From Candidatus Saccharimonadota bacterium (lineage in GTDB: Bacteria > Patescibacteriota > Saccharimonadia > Saccharimonadales > Saccharimonadaceae), in the NCBI RefSeq assembly GCF_025273655.1, contig NZ_CP045921.1:720001-752000 (forward strand): a stretch of DNA of 32,000 nt. Direction: 5' to 3'. Positions 6,807 to 31,585 of this stretch are shown here, one piece after another. A model generated the notes under the pieces. It was not told the DNA's origin, did not search any database, and saw only the letters and a program-made list of their open reading frames with translations. Made by a program: the position numbers and the translations under genes. Positions within the stretch are counted from its first letter, which is position 1; each line of letters begins with the position of its first letter.

Positions 6807-8530
6807 AGCTTTTTGATCACCGATACTTCGTCTGGTTCGAGGGCTACTCCAGCACGTACATCGACACGGTGACTGCTCTGCTCGACAGATATACTCGACA
6901 ATACCTGTTCACCGATCACAAAATGACTGTCCGATACGCGCACACTGCCTTGTTTGTCGCGCGAGAAATTGACAAGTACTATCAGCTGATCGCCCGTCTC
7001 TTCGTCTTCGCGCCCATACGCCATCACTTGGTCGTTGTCGGTATGTAGTGGTACATACTTGCCATTTTGTGCCGACGGCAATTCATGCGTGAGTCGAATA
7101 GCCGCACGATAGAGTGACAGCGAAGATGTGTCATGCTGTTTTTGACGCATCACCGCTTTGTGTGCATCGGCTTGATTTGCTGGTAGCCACAGATCTTTTG
7201 GATCAGCATTTGAAAAACCAGCATTTGGTAATGTATCGTCCCACGGAATCGGCGTGCGCTCTGGATCGCGTAGCCCATTAGGATCTTGCAAACGCCAGCT
7301 TGGTATCTCGGCATCTACCAGTCCTAGCTCCTCACCGTTGTAGATGAAGCGCATGCCAGGCAGAAACAGGTTGAGCACCGCAGCTGCACGTGCGCCATTG
7401 TCGCCCAAACGACTCGCCAAGCGTGGTTTGTCGTGGTTGCCGTTGACCTGATTTGCCACGGCATCGCGTAGCAAGCGCTCATAGTAATAATCCATCTGGA
7501 TCTTGCGACTTCCTGCATCCCAAGATGCCAGCAAACCACCAAAGTTAAATGTGCTAGCTACTTCAGGTGCGATGGCATCTATATCGCGCAGATCCGACTC
7601 ACCCATGTAGGCCTCGAGAATCATGCGCAGATCGCGATGCTCGTACACTTCATCTTTGAGCACTTGGCACATTTCCCAGATATATTCGTGAAGTGTTCGC
7701 GGATAATTACAGCTCTGAAATTTTTGTAGCTGGTCGTACGGATTTTCATACCATTCTTCGTTGTAGGCGGTATTCACTTCTTCGTCGGGCAACTCCATGT
7801 TTTTGCCGATGTGATTGATAGCATCGACACGAAAGCCATCGACACCGCGATCCAGCCAGAAGCGCATGGCGTCTTTCATGGCTTCGCGCACATATGGATT
7901 ACTCCAGTTGAGGTCGGGCTGTTCCACGGCGAAGCTATGCATATAGAATTCCTGGCGCACATCGTCCCACTTCCAGGCAGAAATAGGCGGCGTCCACTCT
8001 TGCTCATGAAGCCAGTGCATCTCGCCACGTTCACGAGCTTTGCGGTTGGGTATAGAAAATACACTTGCCCAGTTGTTTGGCGGCTGGTGTTCTCCATGCT
8101 CGTCGACGCTGCCAGGATGCCAGATATACCAATCATCATAACCATCTTCCTGGCGACGAGATTTTTCGAACCACTCATGCTTGTCAGATGAATGATTAGG
8201 AATGAAGTCGACCATGAGGCGGATGTGTTTGGCGTGTGCAGCTTTTACGAGTGAATCAAAATCTTCGAGGGTGCCAAGTGCTGGGTGTACATTTTTGAAG
8301 TCCGCAATATCATAGCCACCATCTACCATGGGTGACGGGTAAAATGGCGACAACCAGATGGCATTGACGCCCAGCGACTCAAGATACGATAATCGTTCTT
8401 CTATGCCACGAATACTCCCGTGACCAAGTTGTGGCTCTCGCCCACTATCCTCGGCAAATGTCCAGGGATAGATCTGATATACTACCGCATTTTGCCAAGT
8501 AGAGCTCTGACGCGCCTCATGCACATCCAT
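6803..8530 (-). CDS. GH13 alpha-glucosidase / oligo-1,6-glucosidase-like hydrolase
   Basis: GVNAIWLSPFYPSP, DFIPNHSS, GFRVDAINHI (nucleophile region), ILEAY, GNHDKPR. Confidence 0.9.
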   Translation of the reverse strand: MDVHEARQSSTWQNAVVYQIYPWTFAEDSGREPQLGHGSIRGIEERLSYLESLGVNAIWLSPFYPSPMVDGGYDIADFKNVHPALGTLEDFDSLVKAAHAKHIRLMVDFIPNHSSDKHEWFEKSRRQEDGYDDWYIWHPGSVDEHGEHQPPNNWASVFSIPNRKARERGEMHWLHEQEWTPPISAWKWDDVRQEFYMHSFAVEQPDLNWSNPYVREAMKDAMRFWLDRGVDGFRVDAINHIGKNMELPDEEVNTAYNEEWYENPYDQLQKFQSCNYPRTLHEYIWEMCQVLKDEVYEHRDLRMILEAYMGESDLRDIDAIAPEVASTFNFGGLLASWDAGSRKIQMDYYYERLLRDAVANQVNGNHDKPRLASRLGDNGARAAAVLNLFLPGMRFIYNGEELGLVDAEIPSWRLQDPNGLRDPERTPIPWDDTLPNAGFSNADPKDLWLPANQADAHKAVMRQKQHDTSSLSLYRAAIRLTHELPSAQNGKYVPLHTDNDQVMAYGREDEETGDQLIVLVNFSRDKQGSVRVSDSHFVIGEQVLSSISVEQSSHRVDVRAGVALEPDEVSVIKKL

Positions 8531-14324: not shown

Positions 14325-14414
14325 TCATATTTTTGGCCAAACAAAAACACCGCTACAGGCGATGTTCTTATTTTGGTGCGCCACATCGACTTGTCATGGA
14401 ACACTCTAGAACCT

Positions 14415-14444
14415 AGTTTAGTTTTGATGCATCAAAAACTAACT
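14415..14444. promoter_or_regulatory. 30-bp imperfect palindrome centred on ATGCAT, candidate operator upstream of the PLD gene
   Basis: AGTTTAGTTTTGATG|CATCAAAAACTAACT, followed by TATATTATAAC -10-like sequence at 14458-14468. Confidence 0.35.
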
Positions 14445-14514
14445 GATCTAGGCTGGGTATATTATAACGGAGAAATCCATATTGTCGAGCCTGAAACAGA
14501 GGAGAGTAAGCACC

Positions 14515-14964
14515 ATGTTTAGTAAAAGCACTCTCTACGACCAGGACACGTTCTATAGGGCGTTTATGCGCGACCTGCTACACAGTAAAGACGAAGTGAT
14601 TATCGAGAGTCCGTTCATCACGGAAAAGCGCATGAGGACACTTCTACCTATCTTTGCTAAGCTACGCAGTCGTAATGTACGGATAGTCATAAACACTCGT
14701 AATCCAAACGAACATGACGGCGACTACTATTATCAAGCACTTAACGCTATCTACGAGCTGCAAGCGCTGGGCGTTACGGTGCTGTATACCGCCGGACATC
14801 ATCGCAAGTTAGCAATACTTGACCGCAAGGTAGTGTATGAGGGCAGCCTCAACATATTATCGTTTAATGATAGTTGTGAGATAATGAGGAAAATAGCATC
14901 GGAGAAAGCGGCTAAACAGCTATGCGCGTTTATCGCTATCGACCGATATGCGAGGAGTAAATAA
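14515..14964 (+). CDS. single-HKD phospholipase-D-family nuclease (Nuc-like)
   Basis: HKD motif GHHRKLAILDRKVVYEGSLNILS (HxK..D..GSxN). ATG 14515 is preceded by GAGGAGAG, whereas the track start at 14482 is TTG. No signal peptide. Confidence 0.8.
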   Translation: MFSKSTLYDQDTFYRAFMRDLLHSKDEVIIESPFITEKRMRTLLPIFAKLRSRNVRIVINTRNPNEHDGDYYYQALNAIYELQALGVTVLYTAGHHRKLAILDRKVVYEGSLNILSFNDSCEIMRKIASEKAAKQLCAFIAIDRYARSK

Positions 14965-14965
14965 A

Positions 14966-15181
14966 ATGACAGATTTCAAAGAATACGAAGCAAGCCAAGA
15001 AGATATTGATAAGGTCGTTGCCTACTTGAAGACAATCGACCCCGAACACGCCACACCTCAAGATGCTATCGACTTCTTGACGCAGTATCAAGAGAAGTTT
15101 CATCAGCTCGGCACGGTATTGACTGACGATGAAATGAGGCAGCTATACGACGAGTTTGCCGAGTCTCGTAACAACAGCTAA
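14966..15181 (+). CDS. small acidic hypothetical protein (71 aa)
   Basis: ATG 14966 lies 1 nt after the PLD stop and is preceded by GAGGAG. The protein is D/E-rich (MTDFKEYEASQEDIDK..). Confidence 0.6.
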   Translation: MTDFKEYEASQEDIDKVVAYLKTIDPEHATPQDAIDFLTQYQEKFHQLGTVLTDDEMRQLYDEFAESRNNS

Positions 15182-15753
15182 AGTTCGTCAATCATTGGTT
15201 CACTTGTAGGCTGGGGCTTTGGTTTAGCCCCTCCTTTTTTGTTCTTTTCTGCCTTTGGCTTGCTGGCCTTTGGCTGCTCTTGTTCTTGCTCTATCACTTC
15301 TTGCTTTTTTGCAAACACCGACCGCGAGTGCTCAACGATAGCAGTGCGTGTCTTGATATCGCCATCGTCCGAGAGTAGTAAGGTCTGTCCCGATAGTGGT
15401 TCTTGGGCTTTGACGGCCGACAACTTGGCATAAAAGTTAAATGCTGGCAGATTGCTTATTTCACCCTGTTCAATGTAGGGACTAAATAGCGGCAATAGTA
15501 CCCTCTCATCTTGTGGGTTGCCTGTCCTGAAAGTAATGACCGTACCGACGTTTGCCATGATGATACTGACCATTTGTTGATCGCTCTGCTGCGAGGTGGA
15601 CTGTTCGGCCATCGTCAAAAATAATTTATATTTACGAGCCTCGGATAGCATTTGCACAAAGCTTGTCGTCGCAAAGTTCTGGAACTCGTCAACATAGAGG
15701 TAGAAAGGGCGACGCTTCGACTGTTCCAGCCGAGCGCGTCGCATACTGTACAA
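15178..15753 (-). pseudogene. C-terminal remnant of a VirD4/TraG/TraD-type type IV coupling protein
   Basis: The ORF starts inside the Walker B region (RPFYLYVDEFQNF) and continues with LTMAEQS. A TGA lies in frame two codons upstream of the TTG start, so the N-terminal roughly 400 aa, including Walker A and the TM segments, are missing. Confidence 0.7.
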
Positions 15754-16254: not shown

Positions 16255-16881
16255 ATGCATTACTTTTTTAACCGTTACCGTGCATGGATTTTGTTTGTCT
16301 TTGTATCTGCCATAAGTATTATACTCTGGCTCATAACATTATCGGGCAGTGTCAGGTCAATGTACCAATTTTTTCCTATACTTGGGGTGCTAGCATGGAC
16401 AACAATGTGGGTTCACTACGTTGCAAGTTCTATCGGTAAGCCTGCTAATAGCAAGCGATTCGCAACGTGGACTGGACATATAGTTCTATTGTTCATAGTG
16501 ATACATCCCAGTATTTTTTTGGTGCAACGCTTCCTCGATACCGGCTTACTGCCTCCAGAAAGCTATATCAGTTACGTTGGCTCGTATCGTGCGTGGGCAG
16601 TGGTGATTGCGATAGCCGCACTGGTAACATTTTTGCTCTATGATGTCTTAAAACATTTTCGTAGCAAACTCATTGCTCGTGGCATATGGCCGTATGTCGG
16701 TCTACTTCAAGCCTGTGCTATGGCGGCGATTTTCATACATGGCCTAACGCTTGGGACAAGTATGATCAGCGACTACTTCATGACGTGGTGGATATTCTTA
16801 GGCGTGTTGCTTGTTCCATGTCTTGTAGTACAGGTCGTTCGTGATTTTAAAGTATCCGATCGAACAAAAACAGAAGTTTAA
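16255..16881 (+). CDS. 6-TM membrane protein with intramembrane histidines (possible b-type haem / ferric-reductase-like)
   Basis: Six hydrophobic segments, with His in TM2 (H54), TM3 (H75, H84) and TM5 (H162). TATAAT at 16241-16246 lies 8 nt upstream of the ATG. Confidence 0.7.
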   Translation: MHYFFNRYRAWILFVFVSAISIILWLITLSGSVRSMYQFFPILGVLAWTTMWVHYVASSIGKPANSKRFATWTGHIVLLFIVIHPSIFLVQRFLDTGLLPPESYISYVGSYRAWAVVIAIAALVTFLLYDVLKHFRSKLIARGIWPYVGLLQACAMAAIFIHGLTLGTSMISDYFMTWWIFLGVLLVPCLVVQVVRDFKVSDRTKTEV

Positions 16882-17531
16882 TAACCCCAGTCTTTTTGCC
16901 ACTGCTTCATCTGCTCGATTTCTTTTGTCTGCGCGCTAATAACGGCACTGGCGAGGTCTTTTATCTCTTGGTGTTTTGCATTGGTCGCGGCGTATTGAGA
17001 CATTTCAACTGCTTGCTCATGATGAAGAATCATTTGCTTCAGGAACTCTTTGTCGTATGCCTCACCTTTTAAGCCTTGTAATTTATTTTGCATCTCTACC
17101 ATATCTCCGCCCATGTCCATACCAGCACCGCCATGGCTACCATGACCACCACTCATCGTTTCTTTATAGCCCCATGATTTTTGCCATGTTCGCATTTGCA
17201 TGATCTCCGCGCTTTGACTCTGCACGATATTGCTCGCGAGTGTGCGAATCTCATCCTGAGCAGTGACTGCCATTGCTTGTTCTGACATATTCAGAGCACC
17301 TTCGTGGTGAGCCAGCATGTCGGCAATGTACGCCTCATCAAATGCATCTCCCTTTAAGTTTGCATATTTATTATCGCTTGCGGGTTCTTGTTTCTTTTCT
17401 TCTGTTGCTGTGTTGCTTGTCTGTATTGCTTCCTCTGGCACTGGTTTTACGGAAAAAACCACAAAATACCAAACGGCAGCTGCGGCAATCGCAAGTACGA
17501 CAATCACAGTGATAAATATTTTATTCTTCAT
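16878..17531 (-). CDS. DUF305 protein (two repeats), N-terminal membrane anchor
   Basis: MLAHHEGALNM and MILHHEQAVEM motifs, with a C-terminal QMKQWQKDWGY. Confidence 0.85.
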   Translation of the reverse strand: MKNKIFITVIVVLAIAAAAVWYFVVFSVKPVPEEAIQTSNTATEEKKQEPASDNKYANLKGDAFDEAYIADMLAHHEGALNMSEQAMAVTAQDEIRTLASNIVQSQSAEIMQMRTWQKSWGYKETMSGGHGSHGGAGMDMGGDMVEMQNKLQGLKGEAYDKEFLKQMILHHEQAVEMSQYAATNAKHQEIKDLASAVISAQTKEIEQMKQWQKDWGY

Positions 17532-17541
17532 ATAACCTCAT

Positions 17542-18177
17542 CTAATTTCCTTTAGCTTGTAATTGTTTCATTGTCTGCATTTCCTCGGTTTGTTTTTTCA
17601 CGGTCTTGTTCTTGAGATTTATCATCTGACCAAACTGCATGCCCTTTAAATACTCTGCGTTTGATATTTCATTTGCACCCTCATGATGGGCAATCATCAA
17701 GCGCAAGAATAGCTTATCTACCGAACTGCCTGTAGCAGATTCAAGTTCACGCAGATCACTGAGGCTTGCCATCCCAGGAAGAGTCGGGTACATATCGTGG
17801 CCTTCCATCTCAGGAAAATCAGACAGATTGAAATATGTCTCTTTCCACTCGGTAAGCCAGTTAATGTACTGTTTGGTGTCACTCGTTAGCTCATCGCTGA
17901 TACGTACCGCCAGTTGGCGAACTTTGTCGTCGCTCGCATTTTTCTTCGCGATGTCCGCCATCTGGATACCCTGCTGATTATGGACGATCATTTTCTTCGC
18001 AAAATCAGTATCCATGTAGTTATGCTCGTTTGGGTTAGCCGGTTTCTCACTTTTACTTGCTGACGGCATCGGCTTACTTTCTGGAGCGGAAGCTGACTGG
18101 TTTTGTGAAAACCACCAGCCTATTGCTGCTGCTCCGACTGCGAGCACAATAATCGTTCCTACAACTATCTTTCGCAT
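17542..18177 (-). CDS. DUF305 protein, divergent first motif
   Basis: MIVHNQQGIQM and MIAHHEGANEI, plus an N-terminal TM anchor. Confidence 0.8.
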   Translation of the reverse strand: MRKIVVGTIIVLAVGAAAIGWWFSQNQSASAPESKPMPSASKSEKPANPNEHNYMDTDFAKKMIVHNQQGIQMADIAKKNASDDKVRQLAVRISDELTSDTKQYINWLTEWKETYFNLSDFPEMEGHDMYPTLPGMASLSDLRELESATGSSVDKLFLRLMIAHHEGANEISNAEYLKGMQFGQMINLKNKTVKKQTEEMQTMKQLQAKGN

Positions 18178-18194
18178 ATTTTTACCTCCTTGGC

Positions 18195-18713
18195 CTATCG
18201 TGCAAGCGGTTCGGGGCTTTTGCCCAGATTACGCGCAACATAGTCTTCTATTTTTTGCTGATCATACGCCAGTAATGTTTCACTCCTGCGCCATGAGCTT
18301 AATTCTATCGGCGATTTATTGGTTGCTCTTGGTGCAAGGACTATCTTGGTTGGTTGAAACTTTGGATTCGCAAAAGGTGCTGACAAAAGTCGGGTCAATT
18401 TATCAACTTGGTCTTTCGGTAGGCTTGGTTGGTATGAAATGTAGATTCCCCCATGCTCCATATTGTGTACCAGTTGATCGTCGCGGACTTCTGTATCGTA
18501 CACGCCCCACGAAACAGGGTTTGCGTGAGCACCAGAAGTTGGCGGCTGGTCACCGCCATACTTCTTGCTGTCCACGTGTTCACGGCCGTGGTCACTTTGC
18601 TCAACCCCTGGACGTGGTGGTTCCGGTGGTTTGTTTGCCTTTGCAGCAATGATTGCTCCAGTAAAACCAAGAATAACAACTGCCAATACAATGGGCAGGG
18701 TTCTAATTTTCAT
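18195..18713 (-). CDS. DUF3105 domain protein, N-terminal membrane anchor
   Basis: LVHNMEHGGIYISYQP motif typical of DUF3105. It overlaps the upstream DUF305 gene by 11 nt. Confidence 0.75.
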   Translation of the reverse strand: MKIRTLPIVLAVVILGFTGAIIAAKANKPPEPPRPGVEQSDHGREHVDSKKYGGDQPPTSGAHANPVSWGVYDTEVRDDQLVHNMEHGGIYISYQPSLPKDQVDKLTRLLSAPFANPKFQPTKIVLAPRATNKSPIELSSWRRSETLLAYDQQKIEDYVARNLGKSPEPLAR

Positions 18714-19380
18714 AGCCCCAATCTTTTTGCCACTGCTTCATTTGCTTGATTTCTTGTGTCTGAGCAGAAACGACAGCCCTGGTAAGATCTTTTAGCTCTT
18801 GGTGCTGTGCGTTCTTCTCACCAGGAGCAGCCATGTCGATAGCCGACTGGTGGTGCATAATCATCTGCTCGATAAAGGCTTTATCAAACTCATCACCCGT
18901 CTTTCCCTCTAGGGCGCTGTTCATACCAGCCATCTCATCCATCATACCCATAGCGCTGTGATCCATCATGTTGTCGGCACTTGTCGATGGATAACCCCAT
19001 TCTTTTTGCCAAGCCGTCATCTGACTAATCTCACCCTCTTGAGCCGAGATGATGTCGTTCGCCATATCTTTCAACTCTTGGTGCTTGGCATTTTTCTGTG
19101 CCAGCTTTGCCATATCAACAGCACCTTGGTGGTGGGCTATCATATTGGCGATGAAATTACGGTCGTATGTCTCACCACTCATGGCTGCGTACTGCTTGTA
19201 TGTAGCACTATTGGTGTCAACGAGCGAGCCATTGTCTGTAGAGCCGCCCATATCCATGCCGGACATGCTGTCCGTATTTGATTTAGTCGTGTTGCCACGC
19301 AAGCCGTAGTAAAGTGCGCCGCCAGCTACTGCCAGCACGAGCACAACAGCAATGATAGTAAATAATTTCTTATTGTTCAT
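18703..19380 (-). CDS. DUF305 protein (two repeats) with Met-rich segments
   Basis: MIAHHQGAVDM and MIMHHQSAIDM, Met-rich linkers (SMSGMDMGG, DHSAMGMMDEMAGM) and an N-terminal TM. Confidence 0.85.
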   Translation of the reverse strand: MNNKKLFTIIAVVLVLAVAGGALYYGLRGNTTKSNTDSMSGMDMGGSTDNGSLVDTNSATYKQYAAMSGETYDRNFIANMIAHHQGAVDMAKLAQKNAKHQELKDMANDIISAQEGEISQMTAWQKEWGYPSTSADNMMDHSAMGMMDEMAGMNSALEGKTGDEFDKAFIEQMIMHHQSAIDMAAPGEKNAQHQELKDLTRAVVSAQTQEIKQMKQWQKDWGYEN

Positions 19381-23841: not shown

Positions 23842-24099
23842 TTAGTAACCCCAATCATTTTTCCACTGCTTCATTTGAGCAGTTTCTTTACTTTGAGCTT
23901 CAACGATTGCCTTTGCCAAGTCTTTCACTTCCTGATGCTCGGCGTTCTTTTCACCAGGCGCAGCCATATCAAGCGCTCCTTGGTGGTGCATGATCATCTG
24001 CTCGATAAATGCCTTATCAAACTCATCACCGGTTTTGCCTTTAAGCTCGTTTTCCATACCGGCCATTTCGTCCATCATACCCATAGCCGAGTGATCCAT
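23842..24099 (-). CDS. single-repeat DUF305 protein without signal/anchor (85 aa)
   Basis: MDHSAMGMMDEMAGM.., MIMHHQGALDM, ..QMKQWKNDWGY. Its ATG abuts the stop of the repressor gene. It is a paralogue of the C-terminal half of 18703-19380. Confidence 0.75.
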   Translation of the reverse strand: MDHSAMGMMDEMAGMENELKGKTGDEFDKAFIEQMIMHHQGALDMAAPGEKNAEHQEVKDLAKAIVEAQSKETAQMKQWKNDWGY

Positions 24100-24535: not shown

Positions 24536-26677
24536 TTATTGCTTCATTTCATTGTGATGGTACGTGTTTATATCCTTAATGCGGTTCATAAGAAATCGAG
24601 AGCTTGTATGAATTTCAGCGATACTTCTCGTAGGTGTCGTACCGTGCGAGAGAACATTGCAAACAGATAGTAACTTCTTGAGCTTGGCTTCATTATTGAC
24701 ACTAATATTGATTACTTCAGTTTCAAATAGGGCTACTGCAATTTCGTTGTAACTGCTTTGCGTCGCAAGCGCTATCCCAAAGTTAAAGCGAATATACTCC
24801 TCAAGCACGCGGCGCATCGTATTGGGCATATGCAGCGCTTCATCAGGAGTTAACTGATCTGCCGTTTTTTGCGAGAACTCGTAGATTTCTTTGTATAACT
24901 TTCTGTAGGGCATGGTGACGCTGCGTGAAAGCTCAATGTCACTCTGGCCGCTCACCTTAGTAATTTCAAACTTTTTAACGTTGGCTTCCTCGTACTTTCC
25001 ATAGCACAAGTCACAGTAATCACGCCATGAGTGCGTAAGCACGAACGACTGAAAATTCCGGTTATCAATGATGCTCTTTACTAACTCAAGGATAAAGAAC
25101 CTATTCTCATCGTCCATACTTGTTGCCGGATCATCAATAATAACTATCTCAAGGTTATCCTTGAGGTTCTTCTTGTCGCTGCCGAGCATCTCGTAGTAGA
25201 AATACACCAGTGCCAGAAGATTGCGCTCGCCCTCGCTTATATCGTCAATATTGAGATCAACATTCAAAATAGAGTGCTGCAACGCGTACGCTTTTCCCGA
25301 CAATACTAACTTGAAGCCGATTCCAATTTCTTCAAATATCTGATTCAGATACTCAGCAAAATCAGACAGGTCAGATTTGCTATCTCTAAGCTTGCGAATT
25401 GCCTCCGTTCTTGTACGAATATCTTTCTTGAGTTCAGCAATCTTTTTATTATTCTCCGTATAGGCTGCCGTGTTATCACTAACAAGCTGGCTATTCTTCA
25501 CCTCAAAACCGATTGCACCCTTAACAAGAATCTCTAGCCGGTTAATCTTGTCTTCATATAAGCTCTTGAGTTTCTCACGAACATCAAGGAGTGCTTGAAT
25601 ATGCTCTTGCGCCGTGTCGAGTGTATTTTTGAGACTGTCCACGTCTATGCTGGCTTTTTCGGACATTGCCTCAATCTTATCGGCTATAACTTTACCGGCG
25701 TCTTCTATGGCTTGCTTACTGGTAGCGAGAGCGGCCAAAGATTGTTTAACGGACTCATCTTGCTCAAGGGTCACAGTAACAGTCTCACTGGCATCTGTAA
25801 TACCATTGATGTTCTTGTAGATGAGTCGGAGACTATTCTGTATCTTCTCAAGTATTTTACGGTCAACACTTCTTTCGTCGTCAAGGTACGCTTGAATACG
25901 CTGCGCCACTTCTTTCGTATCAAGCGGGCTTTTACAGTATTCACAGTGATCCTTGCCGCTATGAAGCTCAAGACCGGTTTCTAGCCAGCTAACAATATCC
26001 GCACTCGGTATTTCTATGGTTGAGTAGGTTTTAGCGGTAATGCGGCCAAGTTCCTCAAAGTCGGCTTCGGCTATTTCCGGCGAGCGGCTTAATGAGAGAC
26101 TATTGATAAGATCGAGAGTACTCTTAAAATCTTTTTCGCCATCAATTTCATCGTACTTCTCGTCGGGGAACTGTTTAACGGCGTTGGTATAGTCGTCAGT
26201 CCAAAGCTGCACCACCTTTTCATGAATACCCTCTTTGATAGGCTTCTTGGCGATACTGGCCTTACCTTTTCGTCGCTTAAAGATATCATCAAGCGTCGTT
26301 GTCGTGGCTGCAATCAGCTTCTCATTTTCTTCCGTCAGAGTGTCTATTTCTGCTTGTGCTTTATCATTCAGGTCTGACTGTTCTTGGATACGCTTCTCTA
26401 GATCAACGTCAACCTTACCGAAGTCAGCCTTTACGCCTTTGATTCCGCCGCCGTCCTGTAATAGTAGTTGCTCTGATACGAAGTGTTTGTTGTAGATGCG
26501 GAGATTGGCTTCATCGTGCGTTTTCAAGTATTCAGTACGCAGGCCAAGCGCAAGAGAGCTTTTACCGTTCCCGTTGGGCGCGAAGAATATATTGGAGCGC
26601 CCAAATAAGCAGCTCGGTCCGGTGTAGCCTGTAAATGATTTGAGTGTAAAATCTGTTACTTTTTCAACTGGCGTCAT
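24536..26677 (-). CDS. AAA_13-type ATPase resembling RloC/PrrC anticodon nucleases (coiled-coil with CxxC zinc hook)
   Basis: Walker A APNGNGKSS; long heptad-rich insert containing CEYC (C245/C248); signature-like ISEGERNLL; Walker B VIIDDPATSMD; LTHSW; C-terminal RRVLEEY ... NVLSHG (R-x3-E...H). Confidence 0.75.
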   Translation of the reverse strand: MTPVEKVTDFTLKSFTGYTGPSCLFGRSNIFFAPNGNGKSSLALGLRTEYLKTHDEANLRIYNKHFVSEQLLLQDGGGIKGVKADFGKVDVDLEKRIQEQSDLNDKAQAEIDTLTEENEKLIAATTTTLDDIFKRRKGKASIAKKPIKEGIHEKVVQLWTDDYTNAVKQFPDEKYDEIDGEKDFKSTLDLINSLSLSRSPEIAEADFEELGRITAKTYSTIEIPSADIVSWLETGLELHSGKDHCEYCKSPLDTKEVAQRIQAYLDDERSVDRKILEKIQNSLRLIYKNINGITDASETVTVTLEQDESVKQSLAALATSKQAIEDAGKVIADKIEAMSEKASIDVDSLKNTLDTAQEHIQALLDVREKLKSLYEDKINRLEILVKGAIGFEVKNSQLVSDNTAAYTENNKKIAELKKDIRTRTEAIRKLRDSKSDLSDFAEYLNQIFEEIGIGFKLVLSGKAYALQHSILNVDLNIDDISEGERNLLALVYFYYEMLGSDKKNLKDNLEIVIIDDPATSMDDENRFFILELVKSIIDNRNFQSFVLTHSWRDYCDLCYGKYEEANVKKFEITKVSGQSDIELSRSVTMPYRKLYKEIYEFSQKTADQLTPDEALHMPNTMRRVLEEYIRFNFGIALATQSSYNEIAVALFETEVINISVNNEAKLKKLLSVCNVLSHGTTPTRSIAEIHTSSRFLMNRIKDINTYHHNEMKQ

Positions 26678-26684
26678 CAGATCT

Positions 26685-26690
26685 AATTTT
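26685..26690 (-). promoter_or_regulatory. -10 box (TAAAAT) 7 nt upstream of the RloC-like ATG
   Basis: The minus strand reads TAAAAT-tagatct-gATG, with no SD. The architecture matches that at ddl and rarA. Confidence 0.35.
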
Positions 26691-26817
26691 ACCGCCCAAC
26701 TCCTCTAATGGCTACCATAAGTACTTTGAAAAAGAAAGAAGACTCCTGTTCTCTCGCAGAGCGAAAAACACGAATCTTCTTAACCCAATTATATATAGAA
26801 ATTAATTATTTTTAACT

Positions 26818-26958
26818 CCTTACTTCACGTACTGTTCAAGTATACGGGTCGAGCAAACGTATCAAGGTCGTTCGTTCACTGGTAAACGTCAGGAGCGCTC
26901 CACCTTGACACCTTTGCCATGCGACCCCGTCAGGTAACTCCGTTACGTAAAGTAAAGG
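26818..26958 (+). repeat. structured leader/promoter module, copy 1 (conserved core 26842-26909)
   Basis: Nested complementary segments: 26818-26832/26942-26958, 26844-26851/26922-26930, 26853-26857/26913-26917, 26862-26868/26902-26908. The core is about 80 percent identical to 27361-27430. Confidence 0.6.
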
Positions 26959-26966
26959 AGGAAGAC

Positions 26967-27260
26967 ATGACTAGCGTAGCTGAAGCAACACAAACTGTAG
27001 CCACCGAGTATAACGGGTGGAGCAATCGAGAAACGTGGGTGGTAAACCTGTGGCTCTCAGGTGAACCGTCTAGTTATAGCGTACTGATGGAAGCTGTGAG
27101 TATGCAATGTCCCGCAGTCGACAAAGCTGACTGGCTTAAAGAACGGTTAGAGTGGCAGCTAAACGATGAGATCGAGGATGCCTGTATGTGGCGCGACTTG
27201 CTACAACACGCCTTTCGACAAGTTGACTGGTTAGAGATTATCAAAGCTAATCTCGACTAG
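26967..27260 (+). CDS. hypothetical small protein (97 aa) with W-rich motif NGWSNRETWVVNLWL
   Basis: ATG 26967 is preceded by AAAGGAGG. The track start at 26919 lies inside the leader hairpin. Confidence 0.7.
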   Translation: MTSVAEATQTVATEYNGWSNRETWVVNLWLSGEPSSYSVLMEAVSMQCPAVDKADWLKERLEWQLNDEIEDACMWRDLLQHAFRQVDWLEIIKANLD

Positions 27261-27340
27261 CTAACGACGTCCTGAGCATGACGCTAAACTGCTCCTATCG
27301 TCATGCTGTACGGAACTAAGTGGCAGCATGTAAGAGGCTT

Positions 27341-27467
27341 CCTCCCTCTGTCTTTTCATTATACGGGTGAACGAACCGCATCAAGGTCGTTCGTCCCATT
27401 GGTAAACGTCAAGGGGAGCTCCACCTTGACCCAGTTCGTTGCAGCCCGTCGCCCTCTGACAGAGAGG
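27341..27467 (+). repeat. structured leader/promoter module, copy 2 (conserved core 27361-27430)
   Basis: Nested complementary segments: 27341-27352/27458-27467, 27363-27367/27445-27449, 27370-27376/27434-27440, 27381-27387/27423-27429. Confidence 0.6.
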
Positions 27468-27501
27468 CAGAAAGCCCTCTCGGTAAAGCAAGGAGGGTCT
27501 T

Positions 27502-27834
27502 ATGGACACCGACACGATACCAAACGAAACATCAGCAAAGATAGCTGCGCTCAATGACGCGCATCGTCGTAGCAATCCAGTGCGTTACATGATTACGCGC
27601 GGCGTATCTGCAAAGATGGATTTGCAAAGAGTCATCAGCATGGTACGGAGTTACGATGTCTTTAATGAAGACAACGACCCATACGGAGAGCATGATTTTG
27701 GACAAATCAAGCTCGATGGCGAGACGTTGTTTTGGAAGATAGACTACTACGACCAGCAGTTGTCCGGTTGGTGCGATCCGCTCAGTCCGGATTGTCACCG
27801 AGTCTTAACGGTGATGTTAGCCGAGGAATACTAA
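27502..27834 (+). CDS. DUF3768-like protein
   Basis: NEDNDPYGEHDFGQI...LFWKIDYYD matches, from memory, the DUF3768 family found on plasmids and ICEs. SD is AAGGAGGG. Confidence 0.7.
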   Translation: MDTDTIPNETSAKIAALNDAHRRSNPVRYMITRGVSAKMDLQRVISMVRSYDVFNEDNDPYGEHDFGQIKLDGETLFWKIDYYDQQLSGWCDPLSPDCHRVLTVMLAEEY

Positions 27835-27847
27835 CCTCGGCTTTTTT
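27819..27847 (+). terminator. rho-independent terminator after the DUF3768-like gene
   Basis: AGCCGAGG-aatactaa-CCTCGGCT followed by TTTTT. The stop codon lies in the loop. Confidence 0.75.
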
Positions 27848-27904
27848 AGTCCTGGGCGTGACTTAAAACCGCCCGACAAAGTTTAATTCTAAAGGAGCGA
27901 AGAC

Positions 27905-28126
27905 ATGTATATCACAGTAAGCGAAGCAACACGTCAGAAAATTGAGCACAGTCGAGAAAGCTGGGCAGAAATAGCTAAGAAGTTTGGCTGGTACTTTGAA
28001 CCGTTCTATATTCAGGTACGGATTGACGAGTTCGGTGAAGTTGTCGATACGGTTGGCCATAAAGGTATGCAAAATTCACGCGGCGATATACTCATATCTG
28101 ATGAGCTTGATGACGGAATAGAATAG
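27905..28126 (+). CDS. hypothetical small protein (73 aa)
   Basis: SD AAAGGAGCGAAGAC-ATG, nearly identical to the SD context of 26967. Acidic C-terminus. Confidence 0.65.
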   Translation: MYITVSEATRQKIEHSRESWAEIAKKFGWYFEPFYIQVRIDEFGEVVDTVGHKGMQNSRGDILISDELDDGIE

Positions 28127-28162
28127 CTATCATACCAGTCCTGGGCAAGACGATAAAAGGCT

Positions 28163-28972
28163 CTACAAATCAGATAGTAGTAAAAGCTCGTCAGCATCTT
28201 CAATGCTTGTCCAAACGGCATCGCTTGCGGCTGCGTCTTTGAGTGCGCCAAAGGTGGTCGTATATACAGCCAAGTCATCGTCTATGTCGGCACGATTGAT
28301 TGCAGCACTAGCCGCACGCCTCGCGCGTGTTTCGGTCGTACCTTTTTCCGTGACGAGTAATAGGCTCGGTAGTTCGCTATTCGTCGCCTCCCAGCCACCC
28401 TCATCAAAGAACTCAGCATAACCACTAATCCGGCGATCAAGTATATTGCGCGGCAGACTGTCAGGAATGACATCTAAGAAGAAGCGCTTTGGAGTGTCGC
28501 CAAGTTTGAGTGACAAAAAGGCATCAGGTGGACTATCGGGAAAGTAGCTAAAGCGGCTCATATCGCGGCGGAGGTATACCTTCAAGTCTGGGTACTGATG
28601 CTTGAGGGCGTTCGTGAGGCCATAGACATCTAGGGTATGGGAAACAAAAGCTTGACTCAGAACTTTATCACGATAGCTGGCCTTTATGGTGGCTTCGGTA
28701 ATGTGAGCGTGACCATCAAGCGCTTGAAGCGTTTTGAGGCCTTTAGACGTCAAGTAATAGGCTGCTGGCACACCGAGTAGCTTGAGTCGCTTTTCCTGCC
28801 TCATAGCTACTAATCCATGCTTAATAAGGACGTTTAATTTCTCGTATAAACTAGACCCTGCTTTAATACCTAGACTATCTGCTACTAACTGACGACTACC
28901 AAACCTGTACTTATACAGAACTTCTAATATGTCTATTTGACCTTGTTTTAATGCTGATCGTTTATCTGCCAT
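28163..28972 (-). CDS. replication-relaxation family protein (wHTH N-terminus)
   Basis: N-terminal wHTH-like ILEVLYKYRFGSRQLVADSL...LIKHGLV, then HTLDVYGL, PDAFLSL and RFFLDV segments typical of the Replic_Relax family of Gram-positive plasmids and ICEs. Confidence 0.7.
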   Translation of the reverse strand: MADKRSALKQGQIDILEVLYKYRFGSRQLVADSLGIKAGSSLYEKLNVLIKHGLVAMRQEKRLKLLGVPAAYYLTSKGLKTLQALDGHAHITEATIKASYRDKVLSQAFVSHTLDVYGLTNALKHQYPDLKVYLRRDMSRFSYFPDSPPDAFLSLKLGDTPKRFFLDVIPDSLPRNILDRRISGYAEFFDEGGWEATNSELPSLLLVTEKGTTETRARRAASAAINRADIDDDLAVYTTTFGALKDAAASDAVWTSIEDADELLLLSDL

Positions 28973-28994
28973 GATACTATCTCGTGTTCACTGT

Positions 28995-29046
28995 CTCTGC
29001 TTCTTCTTTTCTATATATGTATATATAAGAAAGAGAGAAAAAATAC
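28995..29046. repeat. AT-rich imperfect palindrome (pyrimidine arm / TATATA centre / purine arm)
   Basis: CTCTGCTTCTTCTTTTCTATATATGTATATATAAGAAAGAGAGAAAAAA lies in the divergent intergenic region between the replication-relaxation gene and the recombinase operon. Confidence 0.4.
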
Positions 29047-29129
29047 AAGTATTAACAGATGTAAATAAGGGTATAAATACCGCATACCGATATTCGGCAT
29101 AATTTAAGAGGTAAAATAAGTAAAAAGTA

Positions 29130-29158
29130 TTGCTTTTTATTTTAATTAGTAATACTAT
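29130..29158 (+). promoter_or_regulatory. sigma70-like promoter for the small-ORF/recombinase operon
   Basis: TTGCTT (29130-29135) - 17 nt - TACTAT (29153-29158). Confidence 0.35.
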
Positions 29159-29169
29159 TTATATATAGA

Positions 29170-29195
29170 GATTGTACGTTAACAATTCGGCTAGT
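29170..29195. repeat. left arm of 26/27-nt inverted repeat
   Basis: GATTGTACGTTAACAATTCGGCTAGT. The reverse complement of 29603-29629 is GATTGCCACGCTAACAACTCGGCTAGT, giving about 22 matches with 1 indel. Confidence 0.65.
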
Positions 29196-29214
29196 TACAG
29201 GTAAAGGAGGCGGC

Positions 29215-29367
29215 ATGATTGAGCGTGAATTACTTGAAAAGGAAGCGATGGCAGAAGTATACGCCTGCTGGTACTACGACCTAGCAGATACGCTTTACGA
29301 AACGCCAGACGAAGACCTTTTGGCTATCGTGAACCACACGCATATGTGCATTACATGTGAGCGCTAA
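29215..29367 (+). CDS. hypothetical 50-aa protein with C..HxCxxC pattern (below ORF-track cutoff)
   Basis: Own translation: MIERELLEKEAMAEVYACWYYDLADTLYETPDEDLLAIVNHTHMCITCER*. SD AAAGGAGG lies 6 nt upstream. Confidence 0.4.
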   Translation: MIERELLEKEAMAEVYACWYYDLADTLYETPDEDLLAIVNHTHMCITCER

Positions 29368-29395
29368 ATAGTATTACATGTTAAAATAAGGGCAA

Positions 29396-29599
29396 ATGTC
29401 CAGAAAGATAGTCAGTATGCAAATACGTGTCACAGACGACCTACGCGAGCGTGCAAAGGCCGTTGCTAAGAAGCATGGACTAACGCTTAGCGAACTCGTG
29501 TTGCAGCTGCTTGCTCAAACGGGTGACAAGCAGCTCAAAGATTTAGTGAACAAAGAACTCAAAGAACGACCAAAGCCAGGACGACCCTGGGACAAATAA
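29396..29599 (+). CDS. ribbon-helix-helix (CopG/Arc-like) DNA-binding protein
   Basis: KIVSMQIRVTDDLRERAKAVAKKHGLTLSELVLQLL fits a beta-strand, helix, helix pattern. Confidence 0.7.
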   Translation: MSRKIVSMQIRVTDDLRERAKAVAKKHGLTLSELVLQLLAQTGDKQLKDLVNKELKERPKPGRPWDK

Positions 29600-29647: not shown

Positions 29648-29842
29648 ATGTCACGTCCAAAAGGCAGTAAAAATCAGCAAGCAATCGCAACTCCCGACAC
29701 GGTGCAATTCACCGTCGAGGAGCGTATCAAGTTTATTGCCGACCTGATTGCCGACCGTATAGCCGAAGACGAGGCTGACGGCTTTCCTCTGCTCAAAAAA
29801 ATACAGGAGGTAGACAATGTTTCAAGACAGCAAACAGCGTAA
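29648..29842 (+). CDS. small protein with AT-hook-like N-terminus (RPKGSKN); candidate recombination directionality factor or regulator
   Basis: SD AAGGAGGG. The 3' end overlaps the recombinase start by 26 nt. Confidence 0.55.
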   Translation: MSRPKGSKNQQAIATPDTVQFTVEERIKFIADLIADRIAEDEADGFPLLKKIQEVDNVSRQQTA

Positions 29843-31508
29843 TGCTGTCCTAGCAGTCCGTGTATCGACTGTCGGGCAAGGGATTGATGGCGACTCGCCA
29901 GAAGCCCAAATCGAGCAAGGTAAGCGCTATGCTCCTGCGCACGGCATCAATATCACTAAAATCCTGACGTATCTTGAGTCGGCCGCCGGTGATAATCAGC
30001 CGATGCAGCATGTGATTGATTACGCTATCGACCCGAAAAACGATATTGACGTTATCCTTGTCAAATCCATCGACCGTTTCACCCGCGCTGGTGCGATGGT
30101 GTACGAGCAGCTCAAAAAACAGCTCGAACCCCGTGGTGTCCATCTTGAAGACATGTACGGCGTGATTAGTAATGCAAAGATCAACACGCTAGAGCATCTC
30201 GGTATGGAGTATAAGTGGAGCGTTACCACACCGTCACGTAAAACAGAGTTACTTGAGGCAGAACGTGCCAAAGACGAGGTACGCGATATTCTAACGCGCA
30301 TGATTGGCTCGGAAATCCGCTACACACAGATCGGCTACTGGTCACGTGCAGCGCTATACGGATATGAAACGAGCAAGCTTGAAACCGTGAACGGTAAACG
30401 AGCTATTCTTGTGCCGCAAACCGACCAAGCGCCTATTATTCGTAAGATGTACGATATGCGAGCCTCTGGCATCTACAGTGACGACCAAATAGCCGATGAA
30501 ATGAACCGGCTTGGTTTTCAAACTCCAATCAAGGTAATTCGCGACAAGCTAGACCGGACTAAGATTGTGAGGCGTTCTGGCGGCAAGAAAATGACCGGCA
30601 AGCTGCTGCGCGTCTATGTTGCAAAGACTATTTATGCAGGCGTGAATACTGAAAAGTGGACTGGCGATAAGCCGGTGCTATGTAAGTTTGATGGTTTAGT
30701 GTCTATCGAGTTATGGAATAAAGCCAATCGCGGCAAAATCAGTATTGCACTCAATCCTGATGATCCAGACCACCCAACCGTTACCCGTGCGCCTAAGCAA
30801 GAGAAATTTGCAAAGAAGAACGTATATAACGAGGAGTTCCCATATCGCAAAGTGGTGCTCTGTCCTGAATGTAGCAATCCGTTGCTTGGGAGCGCTTCTC
30901 GTGGCAAGTCGGGCAAATACTACCCTGCATATCACTGTAGTCACCACGGTCACTATTTCCGCGTTCCTAAAGGCGAGTTCGATGACAAGATAAATCAATT
31001 CATTGAGCGCGTTATCGTCGATCCTGCGCGTTTTGACGAGGTTCTAAAGGCCGTACAGACCGTGTGGGAGCAACGCCAAGTGCGTGTGCAGGACGAGGGT
31101 GAACTACGCGATAAGAAGCGCGAGGAGCTTGAGGCTCAGATGCGCGTTATTGTAGACAAAATGAGGCTTGTGTCATCACCGACGGCAATTAAATACATGG
31201 AGGAGGACTTAACTAAAATAGAGCAGCAAATTAACGATTTAGATGCTCGTAAAGGCGAGCTAGAAACGCAAGGAGGCGTCGATATGCCAACAATCTTGAA
31301 ATATATAGAATACTTTGTGGAACACCTCAAAGAATTGCTCATCGACCACTGTAACCCGATACTTCGAGCACGTTATTTTGGGGTATTATTCGACAAAATG
31401 CCAAGCTATGCAGAAATAGATTGTGGAACACCAGAAAATGAAAAAGTTCCAGAGGTCAACGAGCTTTTCAAGCTTGTATTGTCTGGAACGTCTTCATTGG
31501 TGCGGTGA
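29817..31508 (+). CDS. large serine recombinase
   Basis: Resolvase-type catalytic domain (AVRVSTVGQ with catalytic Ser, SIDRFTR), recombinase domain, zinc ribbon CPECSNPL...YHCSHHGH, and a C-terminal coiled-coil. SD is AGGAGG. Confidence 0.9.
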   Translation: MFQDSKQRNAVLAVRVSTVGQGIDGDSPEAQIEQGKRYAPAHGINITKILTYLESAAGDNQPMQHVIDYAIDPKNDIDVILVKSIDRFTRAGAMVYEQLKKQLEPRGVHLEDMYGVISNAKINTLEHLGMEYKWSVTTPSRKTELLEAERAKDEVRDILTRMIGSEIRYTQIGYWSRAALYGYETSKLETVNGKRAILVPQTDQAPIIRKMYDMRASGIYSDDQIADEMNRLGFQTPIKVIRDKLDRTKIVRRSGGKKMTGKLLRVYVAKTIYAGVNTEKWTGDKPVLCKFDGLVSIELWNKANRGKISIALNPDDPDHPTVTRAPKQEKFAKKNVYNEEFPYRKVVLCPECSNPLLGSASRGKSGKYYPAYHCSHHGHYFRVPKGEFDDKINQFIERVIVDPARFDEVLKAVQTVWEQRQVRVQDEGELRDKKREELEAQMRVIVDKMRLVSSPTAIKYMEEDLTKIEQQINDLDARKGELETQGGVDMPTILKYIEYFVEHLKELLIDHCNPILRARYFGVLFDKMPSYAEIDCGTPENEKVPEVNELFKLVLSGTSSLVR

Positions 31509-31585
31509 AGAGGACTTGAACCTCCACGAGCGCAATGCTCACTAGCCCCTCAAGCTAGCGCGTCTACCAATTCCGCCACCACCGC
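31498..31585 (-). tRNA. tRNA-Leu (anticodon GAG), class II, CCA encoded
   Basis: The reverse complement GCGGTGGTGGCGGAATTGGTAGACGCGCTAGCTTGAGGGGCTAGTGAGCATTGCGCTCGTGGAGGTTCAAGTCCTCTTCACCGCACCA has a long variable arm and anticodon loop TTGAGGG. Confidence 0.9.

Follow-up and report, generated by a model that had tools for sequence, protein, structure and literature searches.

To our knowledge, experimental evidence for promoters that work on single-stranded DNA (ssDNA) is confined to the F-like and IncI plasmids of enterobacteria, and wider surveys have relied on similarity to those. The single-strand origins (sso) ssoA and ssoU, and that of ICEBs1, are strand-specific folded DNA in which host RNA polymerase reads promoter-like hexamers within a hairpin, and they yield short primer RNAs that are uncoupled from any Shine-Dalgarno (SD) sequence or start codon. 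6S RNA and artificial bubble templates are open-promoter mimics, with a duplex, a bubble of ~12–13 nt and a second duplex, which the holoenzyme accepts without melting. The nic site of plasmid pAD1 is said, from work by Francia and Clewell in 2002, to lie within an inverted repeat that is conserved between plasmids of different specificity. The F plasmid carries two 92%-identical copies of the ssDNA promoter Frpo, each before a different gene set (PMC9849209). Here, two paralogous imperfect hairpins of ~130–140 nt (141 and 127 nt) were analysed in a stretch of 32,000 nt from Candidatus Saccharimonadota bacterium (RefSeq assembly GCF_025273655.1, contig NZ_CP045921.1, positions 720,001–752,000, forward strand), called the window below, whose numbering is used throughout. 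Each hairpin stands upstream of a small gene within an integrative element, and each is probably a compact Frpo/ssi-like ssDNA promoter of a new sequence family that is dissimilar in sequence to Frpo.

Hairpin module 1 (subtype A) occupies 26818–26958 and module 2 (subtype B) 27341–27467, with the minus strand as the folding strand in both, and module 1 consists of four nested helices with a 12-nt/14-nt internal loop between them. An initial annotation, made from the letters of the window, had described both modules, and its coordinates, blocks, helices and hexamers were all found in place on re-check. Alignment and repeat search located the cores at 26842–26909 and 27361–27430, with the common blocks ATACGGGT, ATCAAGGTCGTTCGT, GGTAAACGTCA and GCTCCACCTTGAC, and the ATGs at 26967 and 27502 lie 57 and 71 nt past the core ends. 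The third helix is GCAAA/TTTGC in copy 1 and AACGAAC/GTTCGTT in copy 2, and the outer helix pairs 26818–26832 with 26942–26958 in copy 1 and 27341–27352 with 27458–27467 in copy 2. On the minus strand, copy 1 carries a −35-like hexamer TTGATA (26865–26860), paired with GTCAA of the other arm, followed after 15 nt by a −10-like hexamer TATACT (26844–26839; most relatives have TATAAT) at the 5′ edge of the internal loop, and copy 2 carries a −35-like TTGATG (27384–27379) followed after 15 nt by a −10 hexamer TATAAT (27363–27358) within the internal loop. Measured against dinucleotide shuffles, DNA folding of the plus and minus strands gave z scores of −2.5 and −4.4 for module 1 and of −3.7 and −5.0 for module 2; the corresponding RNA values were −4.6 and −6.3 for module 1 and −4.2 and −6.2 for module 2. 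The plus-strand RNA fold, which had been taken as the default, was corrected on these scores, as the minus strand folds better in both modules. Protein-coding potential of the hairpin region was considered and rejected: an open reading frame (ORF) at 27303–27557 overlaps module 2 and is not conserved as an ORF.

For the family, an exact-pattern scan over one genome per species returned 43 loci, of which 38 were genuine, nearly all in metagenome-assembled genomes of Candidatus Saccharibacteria, and five were chance matches in other phyla (L009, L011, L034, L045, L047). A second pattern, placed on the opposite arm, returned 79 metagenome loci, one of them a chance match (L124). A looser pattern (CAAGGT..GGTAAACGTC..ACCTTG) had five matches in viral contigs, all by chance and inside one phage gene, and these were dropped (L001–L005). 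Searching the 113 fetched loci by nhmmer, with the 80-nt core as query, gave 154 sites and 107 distinct full hairpin copies, almost all in Candidatus Saccharibacteria genomes or metagenomes and always within the same kind of integrative element, which encodes a MOB_C-type relaxase and, at tRNA-Leu, a serine recombinase; one locus (L016) encodes proteins identical to those of the window, which marks the window itself as part of a Saccharibacteria chromosome. The further copies on which the initial annotation had made its proposal depend thus exist in number, and its remark that no described motif matches holds for Rfam and for plasmid BLAST: over the window, only tRNAs reached the Rfam gathering score, with no Rfam hit across either hairpin even at E ≤5; module 1 had no blastn match among 72,556 plasmids, a set that includes F-like ones; and BLAST of the 8-kb neighbourhood against plasmids matched only at its tRNA. 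Full-text searches on single-stranded promoters and on Saccharibacteria mobile elements turned up no description of such an element. The ~50-nt apex is near-invariant across the family except in nine distinct copies, where it is swapped entirely for an unrelated stem-loop with the basal helices, −35 and −10 retained; the replacement is a GC-rich stem-loop in four copies (L085:399–550, L017:5807–5960, L082:5371–5524, L117:524–677) and a longer AT-rich apex in five (L093:10472–10645, L100:172–345, L072:5608–5782, L075:1213–1388, L014:5100–5273). Hybrid or rearranged copies occur at two loci (L024, L048).

Two subtypes were distinguished by the outer helix, A (CTTTACGTAAC/GTACGTGAAG) before DUF7249 genes and B (CCTCTCTGTC/GACAGAGG) before DUF3768 genes, and these were analysed apart, as a joint MAFFT alignment misaligned the 5′ arms. 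Subtype A (52 copies) has 40 consensus pairs, with 97.8% of cells paired compared with 93.3% in shuffles and a covariation of 0.194 compared with 0.117 (0 of 500 shuffles as high, slid controls ≤0.045), and subtype B (39 copies) has 32 consensus pairs, with 97.1% of cells paired compared with 90.6% and a covariation of 0.201 compared with 0.095 (0 of 500 shuffles as high, slid controls ≤0.065), the shuffle controls overstating independence in both cases, since the sequences are related. The third helix occurs in at least six complementary versions (the two of the window, CCGCAAG/CTTGCGG, CTGAA/TTCAG, CCAAA/TTTGG, and AAAGCAAT/ATTGCTTT) and the outer helix in three. The differences in the third and outer helices between the two copies of the window had been put forward as covariation for a conserved fold, and this is borne out by both subtypes, which beat all 500 shuffles and all slide controls. 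Pairing within the hairpin is under selection.

The folding strand is the complement of the downstream genes, that is, their template strand. It was lower in DNA folding energy in 37 of 40 unique copies (mean −30.0 compared with −25.5 kcal/mol), and those 40 copies hold 108 G:T pairs on the template strand and 25 on the coding strand. The subtype A consensus fold has 40 pairs at −38.9 kcal/mol on the template strand and 24 pairs at −20.1 kcal/mol on the coding strand (16 of 40 lost), and its variable pairs include 166 G:T cells on the template strand as against 27 A:C cells, which would be G:T on the coding strand. For subtype B, the outer helix is predicted on the template strand only and not on the coding strand. 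The preference for folding of the template strand is strong in subtype A and weak in subtype B, and because a minus-strand RNA containing the hairpin would need an implausible start inside the downstream gene, the favoured state is single-stranded DNA.

Hexamer statistics were compiled over 102 copies. The −35 (TTGAYR) was TTGATG in 32, TTGATA in 31 and TTGACG in 23, together 86 of the 102, and the −10 was TATAAT in 81, TATACT in 13 and TACAAT in 5, with changes at positions 3–5 only; A2 was present in 102/102 copies and T6 in 101/102. These correspond to A(−11) and T(−7), the two bases that sigma-70 flips out. Conservation of the −10 is not an ascertainment artefact, because it lies outside both search patterns; two of the −35 bases lie inside the first pattern. 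A 15-nt spacer separates the boxes in 96 copies, and a 16-nt spacer in 6. In the minimum free energy (MFE) folds, the −35 was base-paired (0–2 unpaired nt in 91/102 copies), and the −10 was unpaired at ≥4 of its 6 nt in 81/102. Loop dimensions were taken from the consensus structures, automatic measurement on single MFE structures being noisy for subtype A; both consensus structures have an internal loop of 12–13 nt that opens at the −10 (position −11) and ends ~7 nt past it at the outer helix, which follows directly with 10–15 bp, and the loop side opposite the −10 is variable in sequence. Between the boxes the template arm is 2–4 nt longer than the non-template arm, resulting in a spacing of 17–19 nt along the template arm. 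Because the folding strand carries the hexamers on its 3′ arm, the 5′ arm is the template and runs straight on into the gene; the −35 and −10 are thus placed in the fold so that RNA polymerase would exit rightwards, toward the genes. As modelled, the fold is similar to the open complex of RNA polymerase in having an upstream duplex, a bubble from about −11 to +1/+2, and a downstream duplex.

Coupling to the right-hand gene was assessed over 114 distinct contexts, of which 53 had DUF7249, 44 had DUF3768, and one (L103) had the 73-aa gene described below. The DUF7249 start codon was 45–49 nt from the core in 51/53 contexts, with proteins 38–99% identical, and the DUF3768 start codon was 58–61 nt from the core in 42/44; spacing is fixed (±2 nt) while the downstream proteins diverge to 38–48% identity. 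In the window, these genes are at 26967–27260 (plus strand, DUF7249, 97 aa, Pfam PF23907, E 1.1e-10) and 27502–27834 (plus strand, DUF3768, 110 aa, Pfam PF12599, E 6.9e-25). Judged from the geometry of the fold, transcription at module 1 would start near G26942, the first outer-helix pair, 7 nt after the −10 on the opposite arm, giving a predicted plus-strand leader of ~25 nt (26942–26966) with the SD AAGGAGG at 26955–26961; at module 2, a start near A27459 would give a predicted plus-strand leader of ~43 nt (27459–27501) with the SD AAGGAGG at 27490–27496, and folding of the coding strand predicts a small conserved stem-loop, GAGAGG/CCTCTC, within this leader. The DUF3768 transcript is closed by an intrinsic terminator (27819–27847, plus strand), and the 73-aa gene of the same block follows (27905–28126, plus strand). 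Scanning found no plus-strand sigma-70-like promoter upstream of the DUF7249 or the DUF3768 gene; in the host chromosome, such promoters are enriched (35 compared with 15.4 ± 4.0 expected), with some before tRNA-Phe and tRNA-Val. DUF3768 relatives were present in 442 plasmids, 229 of them conjugative and 79 mobilizable. Sequence searches of NCBIfam, PHROGs and the PDB gave no function for the small proteins, and the neighbourhood of DUF3768 in one Rhizobium plasmid was uninformative.

The initial annotation had left three candidates unranked: a structured 5′ untranslated region (UTR), an ssDNA promoter, and a divergent promoter or antisense cassette. The ssDNA promoter fits best, on covariation, template-strand folding, the looped −10, the paired −35, the fixed spacing to the gene and the MOB_C relaxase nearby; the 5′ UTR is disfavoured, and the divergent cassette accounts for part of the observations. 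Under the proposed mechanism, the nick in the island would lie to the right of the 73-aa gene. The minus strand, which we infer to be the one transferred, would enter the recipient 5′ end first, making the small genes and their hairpins the first DNA inside. Whenever this strand is single-stranded, either as it enters the recipient once the relaxase has nicked the DNA, or while the excised circle is copied in rolling-circle mode, ~130–140 nt of it would fold up, with the −35 on the upstream duplex, TATAAT on the non-template side of the 12–13-nt loop, and the 10–15-bp outer helix replacing the downstream duplex. A host sigma-70-type polymerase would then bind the pre-melted promoter, start at the first pairs of the outer helix (~26942 and ~27459), read the 5′ arm as template, and leave the hairpin into DUF7249 or DUF3768, and the same transcripts could prime synthesis of the complementary strand. 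Formation of the duplex would abolish the hairpin; the hexamers would then face left with a poor 15-nt spacer, and both genes would be left with no recognisable promoter. The wider proposition, that Saccharibacteria islands move as ssDNA, presumably through a chromosomal type IV secretion system (T4SS), with the 130-nt fold as a strand-state switch that fires the first-entering genes, is more tentative, and we regard it as possible rather than probable; as part of it, the fold would be a pre-formed open complex with the −10 already melted, erased and inverted in direction once the complementary strand is made.

Several observations weigh against an ssDNA promoter. A spacer of 15–16 nt is short for a sigma-70 promoter, and a near-invariant apex of 50 nt exceeds what a promoter needs, with ascertainment accounting for part of this only. 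The strand bias of subtype B is weak (−35.1 compared with −30.8 kcal/mol, 63 G:T compared with 56 A:C cells). A divergent left gene starts <400 nt from the hexamers in 52 of 90 contexts, often 10–60 nt from the hairpin edge, and at one locus (L097) three half-copies (3701–3851, 5836–5986, 6846–6995) consist of the 3′ arm alone, with its −35 and −10 and no template arm, and stand 80–250 nt upstream of leftward genes, as if the 3′ arm had been captured as an ordinary promoter; the hexamers may thus also, or only, be an ordinary leftward promoter. The downstream proteins lack an assigned function and are not classic leading-region genes. A consensus scan of F Frpo2 found no −35 or −10, so that hexamer placement is not comparable with F, and blastn against the 72,556 plasmids found no sequence similarity to Frpo. 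The role of the minus strand as the transferred strand, single-stranded in the recipient, is itself inferred. For Saccharibacteria, conjugation has yet to be demonstrated, other roles have been suggested for the T4SS, and relaxases are seldom found (10.1101/2025.01.22.634366). The same survey of T4SS in the Candidate Phyla Radiation (CPR) found relaxases in 103 of 3,035 genomes, with MOB_C the commonest, and T4SS to be widespread, and left conjugation open (10.1101/2025.01.22.634366).

The strongest rival depends on the surroundings of the hairpins. Housekeeping genes fill the window up to 13.4 kb, and the island spans tRNA-Val to tRNA-Leu (31498–31585, minus strand), its right border, with metal-resistance cargo, an AAA_13 ATPase, a Replic_Relax protein, a ribbon-helix-helix (RHH) protein and a 563-aa serine recombinase. 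Across loci, the order hairpin, DUF7249, hairpin, DUF3768, 73-aa gene, relaxase (in either orientation), p50, RHH, p64 and recombinase is kept. The Replic_Relax protein (28163–28972, minus strand, PF13814, Pfam E 2.7e-9) is a putative MOB_C-type relaxase, PF13814 being the Pfam family that CONJscan calls MOB_C (PMC5357655); its gene is syntenic in most loci, with 25–100% identity (mostly 25–65%), and tblastn of the protein against plasmids found nothing. The RHH protein (29396–29599, plus strand) is a possible relaxosome accessory protein or regulator, and the large serine recombinase (29817–31508, plus strand, Resolvase domain, 563 aa) has an end that overlaps the 3′ end of tRNA-Leu. With a PF13814 relaxase, a serine recombinase at one end and a tRNA target, the island qualifies as an integrative and mobilizable element, as does streptococcal IME_Class_8 (PMC5357655), a coupling-protein gene being optional in elements of this type. 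The hairpins are always <~2 kb from the Replic_Relax gene, and the small genes point toward the relaxase region.

In such a setting, the hairpin could be the origin of transfer (oriT), or a rolling-circle nick site, of the MOB_C-type relaxase, nicked in or beside a large inverted repeat as in pAD1 and pAM373. pAM373 has a 142-bp inverted repeat (14392–14533) just upstream of the relaxase operon, which matches the hairpins in size, and both the proximity to Replic_Relax and a selected ssDNA fold would suit an oriT. We nevertheless consider this unlikely, as many elements have two directly oriented copies, each with its distance to a start codon held to within ±2 nt; the hairpins have conserved bulges and an internal loop, with no tandem or periodic repeats in 26500–29500; the apex is identical although the relaxases are only 25–30% identical, which is unexpected for a relaxase recognition site; and the TATAAT with invariant A2 and T6 would go unexplained. 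A separate conserved inverted-repeat block is moreover present between the relaxase and RHH genes. This non-coding block of 69 nt (29126–29194), identified by alignment of 16 loci, consists of an inverted repeat AGTATTGC-N15-GTAATACT followed by TTGTACGTTAACAATTCGGCTAG, and is conserved in those loci though the adjacent relaxase is only 26–50% identical; it is a candidate oriT, or a candidate operator/promoter of the p50-RHH-p64-recombinase operon.

Other features of the island were recorded alongside these. Around the start of the relaxase gene, a short hairpin (~29005–29045) has compensatory changes, with CTTCTTTTC..GAAAGAGAG in the window and CTCTCTCC..GGGAGAG elsewhere. The 73-aa gene is flanked on both sides (27848–27880, 28137–28169) by a conserved small stem-loop, GTCCTGGGC(G/A)nGAC..AAAAC(C/T)GCCC(G)ACAAAG, whose 5-bp stem covaries between loci (GGGCG/CGCCC, GGGTG/CACCC, GGGCA/TGCCC) and for which an RNA leader, a nick region and a protein site are candidate roles. 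A 191-aa ORF (15178–15753, minus strand) matches only the C-terminal TraG-D_C domain of coupling proteins, with 53–78% identity in other loci, and is either a remnant or a small adaptor; at another locus (L050, 4293–5423), an FtsK/SpoIIIE-family gene, possibly a TcpA-like coupling protein, is directly upstream of and co-directional with a subtype A hairpin. Five paralogous ORFs of ~85 aa (repeat families D1/D2; 16881–19032 and 23845–24099) are placed among the DUF305 and DUF3105 genes of the metal-resistance cargo.

A second alternative is the divergent cassette of the initial annotation, under which the hexamers would be an ordinary leftward promoter in duplex DNA, serving a divergent neighbour or an antisense RNA, with the palindrome as operator or insulator. 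The leftward hexamers are real, they fit the sigma-70 consensus, and the host uses such promoters; the divergent genes within 400 nt in 52/90 contexts and the three L097 half-copies before leftward genes agree with this part of the claim. What it leaves unexplained is the selected pairing and the coupling to the right. In 36/90 contexts, the left neighbour is co-directional, so that the output would be antisense only, and the left genes are unrelated and vary in their distance, in contrast to a right gene of constant family and spacing. Four compensating helices over 130 nt, together with a G:T bias on one strand, point to intrastrand pairing and not to a protein operator, and a 15-nt spacer is poor in duplex DNA. 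In the window, a promoter-like site belonging to the AAA_13 (RloC-like) gene itself, TTAAAA-16-TATAAT (26788–26815, minus strand), lies outside the hairpin and is better spaced, and the leftward hexamers of the hairpin are therefore not needed for AAA_13. As the whole explanation, a leftward promoter is improbable, and its use could coexist with that of an ssDNA promoter.

Under a third alternative, the hairpin would serve mainly as a single-strand origin that primes the complementary strand, as do ssoA/ssoU and the ICEBs1 sso, and gene expression would be incidental. The ssoA hallmark CS-6 is TAGCGT in the terminal loop, and this is not found in the apex loop TGACGTTTACCA. For priming, furthermore, neither a set distance to an SD and start codon nor a separate module for each gene is required, and an origin of this kind is accordingly a rather remote prospect, even though the recognition logic, RNA polymerase on a folded single strand, is the same, the family name Replic_Relax covers both replication and relaxation, and Frpo transcripts prime DNA synthesis (PMC7736820; 10.64898/2026.01.09.698686).

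The structured 5′ UTR proposed in the initial annotation, which would act as a coding-strand leader RNA, either a translational or attenuation switch or an EGeRS/conAn-like processive antiterminator, fared worse. The plus strand also beats its shuffles (RNA z −4.6 and −4.2), the outer helix of copy 1 touches the SD, the strand bias of subtype B is small, and repeated structured leaders before establishment genes of the pLS20 family are known (PMC8708921). On the coding strand, however, subtype A loses 16 of its 40 pairs, keeping 24, and half of its energy, and 166 cells would be A:C mismatches, while the subtype B outer helix is not predicted there at all. A plus-strand promoter upstream was not found, in several loci a divergent ORF abuts the hairpin and leaves no room for one, nothing in this reading explains why the opposite strand has an invariant TATAAT in its loop, and Rfam gave no match at E up to 5; a leader RNA is thus very unlikely. 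Retron and 6S-like RNA were also considered for the hairpins and rejected. A folded-DNA recombination site (attC-like, or an IS200/IS605-type end) moving small cassettes would fit an imperfect hairpin of attC size, selected one-strand folding, small promoterless genes alongside and the hybrid or rearranged copies at L024 and L048, but can be given almost no weight, as no integron integrase, tyrosine recombinase or Y1 transposase was found in the window or related loci, R″/R′ core sites (RYYYAAC/GTTRRRY) are not at the hairpin base, and the hairpin is upstream of a gene at fixed distance and highly conserved in sequence, unlike attC.

If the wider proposition of island transfer as ssDNA is true, it would give the CPR its first evidence of zygotic induction and of single-strand entry by conjugation, and it would add a second, independently evolved ssDNA-promoter architecture. 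If the ssDNA-promoter reading is true, the hairpins would constitute sequence evidence for conjugation-like transfer in the ultra-small Saccharibacteria, with two small genes switched on at entry of the island. Confirmation would mark the leading region, and hence DUF7249 and DUF3768 as likely anti-defence or establishment genes, would indicate that a pre-melted −10 bubble suffices for a DNA-strand-state switch, and would provide a transfer-activated promoter for Saccharibacteria genetics, which are still very limited. The family is compact, strongly conserved and unrelated in sequence to Frpo, and in many Saccharibacteria genomes it adjoins a MOB_C-type relaxase gene; short oligonucleotides would do to probe Saccharibacteria conjugation.

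Among described systems, the hairpins were compared with MOB_C origins, single-strand origins, 6S RNA, the pLS20-family modules and Frpo/ssi. Like the MOB_C oriT of pAD1 and pAM373, they contain an inverted repeat of ~140 bp adjoining a Replic_Relax-family relaxase gene. The pAM373 repeat differs in being near-perfect (perfect arms of 25 nt and 18 nt) and single, with an adjacent array of five 12-nt direct repeats and no consensus −10 in the loop, whereas the hairpins here are imperfect, often present in two copies, and each tied to a start codon, with no direct repeats found. The leading genes of F all point toward oriT, and the small genes here likewise point toward the relaxase region; as a separate observation, pAM373 (L128, 8756–13792) has the MOB_C relaxase and then an AcrIIA9-family gene, a PcfJ gene and ssb, all on the same strand and transcribed away from oriT, a layout opposite to that of F and of the island. 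The RSB and CS-6 motifs of sso elements are not in the hairpins. 6S RNA is an RNA that sequesters polymerase, whereas the hairpin would be a productive DNA mimic, and there is no Rfam 6S match. The EGeRS/conAn modules of the pLS20 family are likewise repeated structured non-coding modules before establishment genes (PMC8708921, PMC6294495), but act as coding-strand RNA, with the transferred strand as the non-template (PMC8708921); here the template strand is favoured and a promoter is visible in the fold.

The closest likeness is to the Frpo/ssi elements of F and ColIb-P9, which also have a long imperfect template-strand hairpin whose folding rebuilds a −35 and −10 (Masai & Arai 1997; PMC9849209; PMC11541004), paralogous copies before different small gene sets, near the transfer origin there and near the relaxase gene here, and a promoter expected to be lost in the duplex. 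The template strand of F Frpo2 folds with a z score of −6.4 and is ~320 nt long, and the hairpins here, at ~130–140 nt, are less than half of that. Membership in Frpo/ssi is defined by sequence homology in PMC11541004; the hairpins have no such similarity, and would therefore belong by mechanism only and not by descent. They differ further from Frpo in having a conserved 12–13-nt −10 bubble followed by a short helix, with a spacer of 15–16 nt, in their promoter activity, which is predicted, and in their carrier, which in a CPR host is an integrative element encoding both a MOB_C-type relaxase and a serine recombinase, and not a MOB_F or MOB_P plasmid.

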